Origin: an uncultured Pseudomonadales bacterium
Lineage (GTDB): Bacteria > Patescibacteriota > Microgenomatia > UBA1400 > CAYNBK01
Length of the DNA stretch: 25,780 nt
Direction: 5' to 3'
Assembly (NCBI GenBank): GCA_964395485.1
Contig: CAYNBK010000001.1
Coordinates: 1-25,780, forward strand
The position numbers were made by a program, and so were the translations under genes. The notes under the pieces were generated by a model that was not told where the DNA came from, made no database searches, and saw nothing but the letters and a program-made list of their open reading frames with translations. Shown here in pieces: positions 8,087 through 10,517 of this stretch (its first letter is position 1; every line of letters starts with the position of its first letter).

Positions 8087-8163
8087 GGGTTCGTAGCTCA
8101 GTTGGCTAGAGCGCTTCGTTGACATCGAAGAGGTCACAGGTTCAAGTCCTGTCGAACCCACCA
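8087..8163 (+). tRNA. tRNA-Val(GAC), CCA encoded
   Basis: Acceptor GGGTTCG/CGAACCC-A-CCA, anticodon arm CTTCG-TT GAC AT-CGAAG, GGTTCAAGTCC T-arm. Confidence 0.97.
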
Positions 8164-8177
8164 AAATATGCTATAAT

Positions 8178-8345
8178 GGGTTTATTGTCTGTTTGTATAT
8201 GGCTTTACCAACCATAAAGTTCGATGGAATCGGACACAGACAAGGGGCAAACCAGCCCAAAAAATGGGGTTAAATGAGTATATTCAGAGTGGAACCGTGA
8301 TTTATATCACCTCTGTACCGAAAGGGCAGGGGTGTTTGTTTTATT
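8178..8345 (+). ncRNA. T-box riboswitch, probably Thr-specific
   Basis: Antiterminator CAGAG 8285-89 / CTCTG 8311-15, 7-nt bulge TGGAACC, GTGAT/ATCAC. Overlapping terminator CACCTCTGT 8308-16 / GCAGGGGTG 8326-34 plus T-tract. Stem I TTGTCTGT/ACAGACAA with GATGGAA distal loop. Candidate ACC specifier at 8251-53. thrS lies downstream. Confidence 0.85.
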
Positions 8346-8357
8346 AGGAGGCAATAT

Positions 8358-8702
8358 ATGAGCCAAGATTTTATTACATCACCGGGGAAAAAAGAATCAA
8401 TGTTAAAAACCTTTAATAGGGGAGTTATTGGCGGAGTAGGCTGGTCTTTTGGCGTCTGTATCGGTTCGATTGTTCTTTGTCTGATTTTTATTTACTTTTT
8501 TAACTATTTTCACTGGGGAAAGTATATACAGTCATATTTTGAAGAACTATTGAAACAAACTACAGCCCAGCAAGTTCAAACTCAGAAAGAGTTATTAAAT
8601 ACTATTATACCGGGTGCAAAAACCGGCACACTTAATATCCCGACAGATTTTTATCCAGAAAATATAGACGAATTACTCAATAACGCTCGAATTAAAAACT
8701 AG
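8358..8702 (+). CDS. Small membrane protein (possibly DUF5665-like, unverified)
   Basis: SD AGGAGG 8346-51, 6 nt spacing. Gly-rich hydrophobic stretch GVIGGVGWSFGVCIGSIVLCLIFIYFF. Confidence 0.75.
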   Translation: MSQDFITSPGKKESMLKTFNRGVIGGVGWSFGVCIGSIVLCLIFIYFFNYFHWGKYIQSYFEELLKQTTAQQVQTQKELLNTIIPGAKTGTLNIPTDFYPENIDELLNNARIKN

Positions 8703-8717
8703 TATAAAAATATATAT

Positions 8718-10517
8718 ATGAAAAACAACAATAAAAGTTTAGAAAATAACAACAGCAAAGATGATAAGCTCTTGGCAATGCGGCACAGCTGTGAACACGT
8801 CCTGCACCAGGCTATGGTCGAGCTCTATCCCGGTTTAAAACGGGCCATGGGGCCGGCGACATCCGAGGGCTTTTATCATGATTTTGATTACGATGGCAAA
8901 ATCAGTGAAGAAGATTTTCCCAGCATTGAAAAACGGATGAAAGAAATAATCAAAGCTGATTTGCCAATAATCCGCAAAGAGATTTCGATAAAAGAAGCTG
9001 AACAATTGTTTAAAGGCAACCCATATAAACAAGACTGGCTTTCAAGAATAAAGGCAAAAGGAGAAAAAGCGACTGTTTACTGGAACGGAAAACCAGGGGA
9101 AAAGGGCTCTGACGTAGACCTATGCAAAGGGCCTCATGTTAGTTCTACCGGCAAAATCGGGCCATTTAAGCTCTTTTTTGTAGCAGGTGCATATTGGCAC
9201 GGAGACGAAAAAAACAAAATGCTGACACGTATCTACGGCACTTGTTTTCCCAGCCAAAAAGAACTTGATCACTATCTATGGCAGCAGGAAGAAGCAAAAA
9301 AACGCGACCACCGGGTACTGGGCCAGAAACTAAAACTCTTTATGTTTGATGAAGAAGTTGGTCAGGGCTTGCCTCTTTACCTGCCAAATGGAGCCATGAT
9401 AAGGTATTTGCTGATGGAGTTTGCCATGAATACCTATTTCCAAAGAGGGTATAAGCCGGTATCGACCCCGCATATCGGCACTGAAGCACTATGGAACCAC
9501 TCCGGACATTTACAATTTTATGCCGACAGTATGTATGGTCCATTTGAAGTTGAGGGCAAACGCTACCGCCTGAAGCCAATGAACTGTCCATTCCATGTAA
9601 AAATGTACAATTCGGAAATACGAAGCTACCGGGATTTACCTATTCGCTGGACTGAAATGGGGACTGTTTACCGTTATGAAAAATCCGGCGAACTGCATGG
9701 ACTGACCAGGCCGCGCGTCTTTACCCAGGATGATGCCCACATTATTTGCCGTCCGGACCAGTTGGAAGATGAACTAAGCAATGCTTTGGATCTGATAAGT
9801 TATATATATCATAGCCTACAGATGGAAAAACTTATTTACAAATTGTCTGTTCGTGACCCCAACAATTTAGACAAATATTTTGGCTCAAGTAAAGACTGGA
9901 GCAAAGCTGAAGACACTTTGAAAAAAGTCCTTATTGATAGCGGCCACAAGGATTATGAGACTGATGTCGGCGGGGCTGTATTTTATGCACCAAAAATAGA
10001 TATAGACGGAGTTGATTCACTGGGCAGACGGTGGCAGCTATCGACTGTCCAGATAGACTTTAATCTGCCATCCCGTTTTAAAATGGAGTACATTGACAAA
10101 GACGGCCGTCAAAAAACACCATTCATGATTCACCGGGCATTGCTCGGGTCGTTGGAGAGATTTTTGGGTGTTTACATCGAACATACTGCCGGTGCTTTTC
10201 CCGTCTGGCTGTCTCCGGTTCAGGTGCAGATTGTCCCGATTGCCGACCGCCATCAGCAGTTTGCCGCCAAAGCCAAAGATGTGCTTACAAGGCTTGGTAT
10301 AAGGGTGGAGCAGGATGACAGATCGCTTTCTATGCAGAAAAAACTAAAAGAAGCCGAAGAGCAAAAAATACCCTTTATGCTTATTGTGGGCGATAGGGAA
10401 GTACAAAATAAAACCGTTTCTGTCAGACAGAGGGGAAATAAGGATTTGGGCGCCCAAAGTCTGAAAGCATTTGGCGAAAAACTAACTAATTTAATTGCTA
10501 ATAAAGCGCAAATTTGA
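8718..10517 (+). CDS. thrS: Threonyl-tRNA synthetase (no N-terminal TGS domain)
   Basis: Editing HSCEH and DLCKGPH, RDHRVLG, LKPMNCP, GLTRPRVFTQDDAH, MIHRALLGSLERF, anticodon-binding domain. Confidence 0.98.
   Translation: MKNNNKSLENNNSKDDKLLAMRHSCEHVLHQAMVELYPGLKRAMGPATSEGFYHDFDYDGKISEEDFPSIEKRMKEIIKADLPIIRKEISIKEAEQLFKGNPYKQDWLSRIKAKGEKATVYWNGKPGEKGSDVDLCKGPHVSSTGKIGPFKLFFVAGAYWHGDEKNKMLTRIYGTCFPSQKELDHYLWQQEEAKKRDHRVLGQKLKLFMFDEEVGQGLPLYLPNGAMIRYLLMEFAMNTYFQRGYKPVSTPHIGTEALWNHSGHLQFYADSMYGPFEVEGKRYRLKPMNCPFHVKMYNSEIRSYRDLPIRWTEMGTVYRYEKSGELHGLTRPRVFTQDDAHIICRPDQLEDELSNALDLISYIYHSLQMEKLIYKLSVRDPNNLDKYFGSSKDWSKAEDTLKKVLIDSGHKDYETDVGGAVFYAPKIDIDGVDSLGRRWQLSTVQIDFNLPSRFKMEYIDKDGRQKTPFMIHRALLGSLERFLGVYIEHTAGAFPVWLSPVQVQIVPIADRHQQFAAKAKDVLTRLGIRVEQDDRSLSMQKKLKEAEEQKIPFMLIVGDREVQNKTVSVRQRGNKDLGAQSLKAFGEKLTNLIANKAQI

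Follow-up and report, generated by a model that had tools for sequence, protein, structure and literature searches.

The window, by which we mean the whole 25,780-nucleotide stretch of DNA that was analysed, carries a block on its forward strand in which a tRNA gene, a regulatory leader, a small open reading frame (ORF), and the ThrRS gene thrS follow one another. The parts of this block are listed below.

8087..8163, + strand: tRNA-Val(GAC), found by ARAGORN and scoring 72.3 bits in Rfam; the upstream neighbour of the small ORF/thrS block
8169..8177, + strand: extended -10 element TGcTATAAT of the leader, a putative promoter read from the sequence
8183..8345, + strand: Thr T-box leader of a short Stem I form, as identified by the independent covariance model R1, the fold, and the match to the tRNA
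8199-8215, + strand: specifier hairpin, with ACC at 8207-8209 in its loop
8285-8315, + strand: antiterminator, with the UGGAACC bulge at 8290-8296
8308-8334, + strand: terminator hairpin, with its U-tract at 8335-8345
8346..8351, + strand: Shine-Dalgarno (SD) sequence AGGAGG, 6 nt before the ATG at 8358
8358..8702, + strand: small ORF of 114 aa (ATG at 8358, stop codon TAG at 8700-8702), coding for a divergent DUF5665-like, single-pass membrane protein
8421..8510, + strand: region coding for the TM helix, residues 22-51, with a GGxGWxxGxxxG glycine zipper (hydropathy, AF2, and motif)
8703..8717, + strand: 15-nt spacer made up of A and U only, without an SD, promoter, or terminator
8718..10517, + strand: thrS (ATG at 8718), coding for a ThrRS of 599 aa and followed by infC-rpmI-rplT (Pfam and ORF list)

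Within 8149-8184, the extended -10 box starts 6 nt past the 3' end of tRNA-Val, so any -35 region would fall within the tRNA gene. This packing of tRNA, promoter, and leader is kept in relatives, where -10 boxes of the form TGCTATAMT also precede the leaders. Also, a tRNA gene lies directly 5' of the small ORF in many related genomes; the type of tRNA was read for the window only, where it is tRNA-Val. A search for promoter-like and terminator-like sites between the small ORF and thrS gave none, and the two genes would therefore be expected to share a transcript. In loci where the ORF directly precedes thrS, the gap between them ranges from -14 to +32 nt; a few of these loci have no detected T-box. 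Inspection of the sequence around the small ORF showed no repeats or mobile-element features.

According to Pfam, the ThrRS encoded in the window comprises tRNA_SAD, class II core, and anticodon-binding domains and has no TGS domain. Throughout the order, ThrRS proteins have no N-terminal TGS domain and start approximately 10 to 25 residues before the RHSxEH motif. Many relatives' enzymes are only ~400 to 440 aa long, with the editing domain missing too (G085, G098, G051, G058, G390, G449, G498, and G556).

In a word-based search of 5.8 billion proteins, the small ORF matched only itself, called from Met15. An exhaustive phmmer search of 1.84 billion representatives yielded one true relative, P0002, a protein of 111 aa that is 41% identical to the small ORF over its full length (E 1.3e-22). 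The contig encoding P0002, L038, has the same order of T-box, ORF, thrS, and infC; its leader (ACCAACCAUAAA..., with the T-box core AAUCAGAGUGGAACCGCG) has a terminator and an SD that reads AGGAGA where the window has AGGAGG, a gap of 32 nt separates the ORF from thrS, thrS is 75% identical to that of the window, and infC comes next. Synonymous sites are saturated between the two loci (pS 0.71 to 0.77), and still the frame of the small ORF is intact, with a pN of 0.39 lying below a pS of 0.71 (NG86, window versus L038). An intact frame at saturated synonymous divergence, together with pN below pS, indicates that purifying selection acts on the small ORF and that it is a real gene, albeit one that evolves about three times faster than its neighbours (pN 0.15 for thrS and 0.17 for infC in the same comparison). 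The public gene call starts at Met15 (position 8400) and gives a protein of 100 aa. Met1 (position 8358) is supported as the better start, because the SD precedes it and because residues 1 to 14 are conserved in P0002. The GC content of the small ORF is 34.5% and its GC3 is 30.7%; both are higher in the neighbouring genes (40 to 44% and 39 to 45%, respectively).

The protein begins with a basic N-terminus (net charge of +2 over residues 1 to 21), which is probably on the cytoplasmic side of the membrane. Of the 16 residues in the Gly-rich TM segment, GVIGGVGWSFGVCIGS, 6 are Gly; the Kyte-Doolittle 19-mer maximum of the protein is 2.45, and within the hydrophobic stretch GVIGGVGWSFGVCIGSIVLCLIFIYFF lies a glycine zipper, G28xxxG32xxxG36. 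Glycine zippers of the GxxxGxxxG kind are typical of oligomerising or channel-forming helices, and the small protein may self-associate in this way. A Q-rich segment lies further on, and the C-terminal part has a PENIDELL motif. AF2, run on a 38-sequence alignment, predicted helices at residues 12-51, 54-83, and 103-113, with a kink after the first and a disordered linker before the last (mean pLDDT 76, with 90-97 in the TM part; pTM 0.38). The model points to a protein in which one TM helix is followed by an extended helix and, at the C-terminus, by a short one. This is not the fold of a transporter, permease, or enzyme. Searches for a transporter family gave, at best, BPD_transp_2 at 13.5 bits against a cut-off of 26.8 bits in Pfam, and no transporter matches in NCBIfam or in PDB sequence searches.

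Pfam's DUF5665 model (PF18910) scored 13.6 bits against the small ORF (E 0.07), below the 27-bit gathering threshold, in an alignment of residues 24-52 with profile positions 11-39, and a PF18910 scan of the window's genome (G000) gave no match at E<=1e-4. Profile-profile comparison was more informative. When the small ORF and P0002 were compared by hhalign with 10 members of what we call the B-type, the probability was 97.5% (E 5.7e-12, 67 columns). B-type proteins are bona fide DUF5665 members, scoring 40-44 bits, that carry the motifs GGIGWAxGxxxG and, further on, LGGLPLIG. A second group, the A-type, is longer and is missed by Pfam; its N-terminal part reads K-T-I-Y-D-x-S...IF-W-R-N-F-L-A-G-F-S-R-A-L-G-G, and it further has one TM segment, P-Q-I-x-P, a Q-rich tail, and a P-E/Q-x-L-x-x-L-L helix. 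The small ORF and P0002 matched the A-type with a probability of 59% (E 9e-5), and the B-type matched the A-type with 69% (E 4e-5); homology between the A-type and the B-type is weak by profile (E ~1e-4) and partly leans on the position that they share.

From this evidence we regard the small ORF as a divergent relative of DUF5665. It shares with the family the N-terminal motif F-x-x-x-[FV]-[IV]-G-G-[IVL]-G-W-x-x-G-x-x-x-G and a glycine-zipper TM helix, the first motif, G-G-[IVL]-[GA]-W-x-x-G-x-x-x-G, being present as GGVGWSFGVCIG at residues 25-36. It is also like DUF5665 in being CPR-only, in having one copy per genome, and in occupying the slot 5' of thrS. The second motif, L-G-G-[LIV]-P-[LIV]-[IV]-G, is absent; the window has FHWGKYIQ there, with the Gly/Pro position loosely kept. 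The window's protein differs from DUF5665 in its 60-residue tail (Q-rich helix, linker, and PENIDELL helix), which resembles the A-type. The conserved protein features are the N-terminal motif, a Pro after the TM segment, and a C-terminal PExI/LxxLL helix. A joint profile found exactly one copy in the window's genome, and the small ORF is therefore that genome's DUF5665-superfamily gene rather than an extra paralogue. Of 401 genomes sampled from the phylum, 123 carry DUF5665, almost invariably in one copy, and none of the 14 control genomes has it; one member is assigned to Candidatus Woesebacteria. A literature search for DUF5665 found no paper.

The leader in front of the small ORF had no match to the Rfam T-box model RF00230, either at the gathering score or at E<=10. 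Three sub-threshold RF00230 matches occur in the genome, and the thrS leader is not among them; the contigs that bear the genome's other T-box-like elements end close by. Because of the Rfam negative, identification of the leader as a T-box needed separate support, which comes from its anatomy, its fit to a tRNA, and its conservation. The antiterminator, CAGAG-UGGAACC-GUGAU-UUAU-AUCAC-CUCUG (8285-8315), would form two helices around a 7-nt bulge. Its 3' strand (8308-8315) is overlapped by the terminator (8308-8334), which is followed by UUUGUUUUAUU, and the predicted fold shows the terminator. Upstream, the hairpin at 8199-8215 displays CUUUACCAA in its loop, with the specifier ACC-A at 8207-8210, so that a purine follows the codon. 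The genome encodes a tRNA-Thr(GGU) whose anticodon pairs with ACC. Moreover, the discriminator base is U in all three tRNA-Thr genes (it is A in the adjacent tRNA-Val), and a UCCA end can therefore pair with the UGGA of the bulge.

Comparison with relatives adds to this picture. An alignment of 19 relatives' thrS leaders (A7) contains the -10 box, a short Stem I with the loop YNACCAA, a second hairpin, AAUUAAG..CCA, and the T-box core; the specifier ACC is invariant in all 19. From these 19 sequences, RNAalifold recovered both the bulged antiterminator and the hairpin that presents the specifier; 14 of the 15 pairs show compensatory changes. An nhmmer profile of the leader was discarded as proof: it matched the window only when trained on it, and a leave-one-out run found nothing. 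It was therefore replaced by R1, a covariance model for which the 19 relatives were used and the window was left out. The top match of R1 in the window is at 8183-8350 (21.7 bits; E 0.006, a rough value because the calibration was short), full length and in register, and the runner-up scores 12.9 bits. R1 gives 22 bits on the L038 leader. Judged by eye and from the RNAalifold structure only, the leader is of about 165 nt and its Stem I presents the specifier in the terminal loop. We identify the leader, on sequence and predicted structure, as a Thr T-box whose short form is specific to the lineage and escapes the Rfam model. The standard T-box model probably under-counts CPR T-boxes; a literature search for T-boxes in CPR found no paper.

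Most of what the initial annotation had described at this locus is borne out. It had noted a 114-aa ORF with a perfect SD and a Gly-rich TM segment, with thrS starting 15 nt past the stop codon, and coordinates, motif, hydropathy, and AF2 all agree. Its placement of a T-box before the ORF holds despite the Rfam negative, by virtue of the antiterminator and terminator, the ACC specifier, the UGGA-tRNA fit, and the R1 match. Its guess of DUF5665 is upheld by hhalign, though not by the Pfam cut-off.

To see where homologues sit relative to thrS, we used the joint profile, which matches 128 of 286 genomes of the order. The position of thrS was cross-checked in 111 genomes of the order, with 16 further matching genomes left out. 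In 37 of the 111, spread over 11 families (f1, f2, f3, f6, f7, f11, f14, f18, f19, and parts of f13 and f15), the gene shares a strand with thrS and stands directly 5' of it; in 1 it is 2.3 kb away. The gene is unlinked in about 73, nearly all of them in the large family f13, with f4 and f10 in addition, and some of these calls are on short contigs. Unlinked f13 copies lie among genes for cytidylyltransferase, DHFR-like, dUTPase, and thymidylate kinase proteins. The closest thrS relatives, G040 (74% identity) and G009 (73% identity), have no small ORF at thrS; G040 (f10), the closest thrS relative with a genome, has a B-type copy on another contig.

Families f19 and f15, as well as further orders of the class, have bona fide B-type members 5' of thrS. 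In a phylum-wide count with Pfam's DUF5665 model, the gene adjoins thrS in every one of the 7 DUF5665-bearing genomes that come from the class's other orders. It does so in 2 of 3 f38 genomes and likewise in 2 of 3 f55 genomes, the distance being 2.2 kb in the remaining f55 genome. In about 65 further genomes of the phylum, DUF5665 lies apart from thrS. We read this distribution as showing that the thrS pairing is an old feature of Microgenomatia and not a property of the whole family. In another class (L082, L084, L095, L096, L102, and others), a block runs GalU-like, small TM protein, YtxH-like, DUF5665, and dnaE, and so groups small proteins of membrane or stress type.

Sensor layouts around the small ORF and thrS were counted by pattern search, profile, and covariance model, and are far from uniform. 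A T-box precedes the ORF, with thrS following, in about 14 cases. A Thr sensor stands between the ORF and thrS in about 20 genomes, either as a T-box (about 12, including the first copy in three f7 genomes) or as a Thr leader-peptide attenuator (6 to 8 genomes). The assignments are as follows.

T-box, then ORF, then thrS: window (f1); L038; G031, G247, G248, and G055 (f14); G002 and G020 (f3); G059 and G063 (f2); G114 (f13); second copy in G024, G049, and G251 (f7)
ORF, then T-box, then thrS: G053, G028, and G041 (f11); G023, G048, G005, and G036 (f6); G043 (f14); G037 (f7); first copy in G024, G049, and G251 (f7)
ORF, then Thr leader-peptide attenuator, then thrS: G018 and G034 (f19); G013 and G246 (f14); G184 and G185 (f13); for example, MNSFSLTTTTTTIH and MSTTTRTTTTILPL
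ORF, then thrS, with no recognised sensor (about 6): G010, G017, G057, G084, G085, and G249

Family f14 alone shows all four layouts. Where the sensor is 3' of the ORF, as in the roughly 20 linked genomes, the ORF would escape Thr control, and co-regulation of the small ORF with thrS is, on the predicted layouts, not conserved.

The leader-peptide attenuators are short ORFs rich in Thr codons that stand before thrS without a T-box (MNSFSLTTTTTTIH, MSTTTRTTTTILPL, and MFAHLSTTTTTTIPAGE) and are followed by a GC-rich hairpin and a U-tract. Sites were seen at L032:1349-1393 and L033:1361-1405, in the spacers of L048, L060, L063, and L066, and 5' of thrS in L027 and L035. Within one order, the thrS locus is accordingly fitted with either a riboswitch or ribosome-mediated attenuation. 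Leaders from f6, f11, and f14 (L019, L021, L031, L039, L041, and L044), of the kind AAGACCA...CAGGAUGGAACC...UCCUG...GGUCUUUUUUU, depart from the window's arrangement in that the terminator's 3' strand, GGUGGUCUUUU, has its pairing partner, AAGACCAC, 5' of the T-box core; the terminator helix encloses an antiterminator-like hairpin and does not compete for its 3' strand. In the three f7 genomes G024 (L049), G049 (L051), and G251 (L062), tandem paralogues are arranged as ORF1, T-box, ORF2, and thrS, and differential loss from an f7-like state could explain why the sensor is found on either side of the ORF elsewhere.

A working model for the window can be drawn from these parts. The promoter at 8169-8177 would drive a transcript that ends at 8335-8345 unless uncharged tRNA-Thr stabilises the antiterminator. 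On contact of uncharged tRNA-Thr(GGU) with the specifier, ACC, and the bulge, UGGA, the antiterminator would form, and read-through would yield one mRNA with the ORF, thrS, and probably infC and the downstream genes. With a single read-through transcript, the membrane protein would be produced together with ThrRS. That a real DUF5665-like membrane protein is co-transcribed with thrS under a Thr T-box is well supported. Since the order of T-box, ORF, and thrS recurs in about 14 genomes, induction on Thr-tRNA shortage is a sound expectation, and in the window's genome the small ORF is probably induced along with thrS under such a shortage.

What the protein does with this control is a separate matter. 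We have, on sequence evidence, a real gene of established family relationship and conserved position, behind a leader whose T-box anatomy and Thr specificity are established too. In the reading that we favour, the Thr-dependent expression of the small ORF reflects no Thr-specific role; it is a by-product of a gene order that was inherited and of a regulatory region that is mobile. Three observations argue for it: the sensor varies in the side of the ORF on which it lies, tRNA-Val is kept in the block, and unlinked copies lie among genes of nucleotide metabolism or in the GalU/YtxH-like/dnaE block. The retention of a tRNA gene in the same block means that gene order there persists between functionally unrelated genes. 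Taken as a whole, the reading that the small ORF encodes a DUF5665-like envelope or membrane housekeeping protein, a neighbour of thrS under a Thr T-box whose Thr dependence is a by-product, has in our estimate a probability of roughly 0.68. Several observations pull the other way. The small ORF scores under Pfam's DUF5665 cut-off and is without the second motif, the profile link between the A-type neighbours of thrS and DUF5665 proper is weak, and the GC3 of the ORF is lower than that of its neighbours. Moreover, the adjacency of ORF and thrS across the CPR class, and in f38 and f55, exceeds the survival of many neutral gene pairs and could reflect a functional tie to ThrRS.

Such a tie to Thr supply or to ThrRS, the main rival reading, might take the form of an oligomeric pore or accessory subunit for Thr import, or of a tether or partner for the TGS-less ThrRS. 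The deep conservation of the pair would fit, as would the inclusion of the ORF in a Thr-sensing unit in about 14 genomes, the f7 tandem duplicates that both stay by thrS, and a glycine zipper of the kind generally seen in oligomerising or channel-forming helices. We nevertheless consider it unlikely, because the protein has one TM segment and no match to a transporter family or fold, a T-box or Thr leader lies 3' of the ORF in about 20 linked genomes, some two-thirds of the order's family members and about 65 further genomes of the phylum have the gene unlinked to thrS, and the unlinked copies have other recurrent neighbours. Quite improbable, in our view, is that DUF5665-type proteins are dedicated membrane partners of ThrRS in Microgenomatia, anchoring the TGS-less enzyme or coupling Thr import to charging; if they were, the pair would have been held together class-wide and several lineages would have moved the gene into the Thr-sensing unit.

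A role in cis was also weighed, in which translation of the ORF feeds ribosomes to the SD-less thrS start by coupling or re-initiation, or stabilises the mRNA, the peptide itself being dispensable. The perfect SD on the ORF, its absence from thrS, and the short or overlapping gaps of directly adjoining pairs would suit this idea. Across the order, thrS is without a clear SD in both layouts, including where a T-box directly precedes it, which makes the missing SD of the window uninformative on coupling; a missing thrS SD was accordingly rejected as a sign of translational coupling. Moreover, the protein sequence is conserved, with pN below pS, and the family lies far from thrS in many genomes, which leaves a cis role very unlikely. 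Least credible is the idea that the ORF was recently inserted as a passenger or is spurious and simply part of a long leader, for which the orphan status in the word-based search, the empty site in G040 and G009, and a GC3 of 0.31 against 0.39-0.45 in neighbouring genes might speak, but which is at odds with a 41%-identical homologue at the same site beside a 75%-identical thrS, positional relatives in 11 families and other orders, surroundings free of repeats and mobile-element features, and the copy that G040 keeps elsewhere in its genome.

Returning to the by-product reading, it retains only a part of what the initial annotation had made of the gene. Of the proposal that the protein is induced on Thr limitation and helps in obtaining amino acids, the induction is backed by the recurrent T-box operon layout in about 14 genomes; the acquisition role is unsupported, given a single-pass protein without a transporter match, a sensor that is often 3' of the ORF, and a family that is often unlinked. 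The alternative offered there, a passenger insertion, gives way to an old neighbour of thrS across the class. The initial annotation had also named two observations that would speak against it: a T-box directly before thrS does occur in some relatives, and homologues do not lie in random contexts.

These results provide a first firm genomic handle on DUF5665, a CPR-restricted family without known function. Its gene is conserved 5' of thrS in Microgenomatia and, in several lineages, is one of the cistrons in a Thr-sensing operon. Pfam's model, moreover, is narrower than the family and misses the long A-type and the intermediate form in the window. More broadly, aminoacyl-tRNA synthetase regulation appears plastic in these reduced genomes: thrS uses a short T-box, a Thr leader peptide, or neither, and its sensor is placed on either side of the small gene. 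Rfam's T-box model appears to under-detect CPR T-boxes.

Besides DUF5665, three known systems invite comparison. In architecture only, the small protein is like ATP synthase subunit b, in which an N-terminal TM helix is followed by a long extended helix, and weak b-like matches did recur (E ~0.04 in PDB; 18.9 bits in NCBIfam). It differs in being shorter, in falling far under the cut-offs of 127-156 bits, and in lying outside any atp operon context, and the likeness is most likely compositional.

The second is the thrS leader of Firmicutes. In Bacillus subtilis, thrS and thrZ have a T-box leader with a Thr specifier that senses uncharged tRNA. The window's leader is like it in having a UGGN bulge that fits the discriminator and a terminator/antiterminator switch before thrS; it differs in that a protein cistron stands between the T-box and thrS, in that Stem I appears short and presents the specifier in its terminal loop, and in that the leader is Rfam-negative. 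The third is the actinobacterial ileS T-box, which has a shortened Stem I without the long distal platform and acts on translation. The window's Stem I would be similar in being reduced and in presenting the specifier on a small hairpin, but the window's leader differs in having a clear intrinsic terminator with a U-tract.
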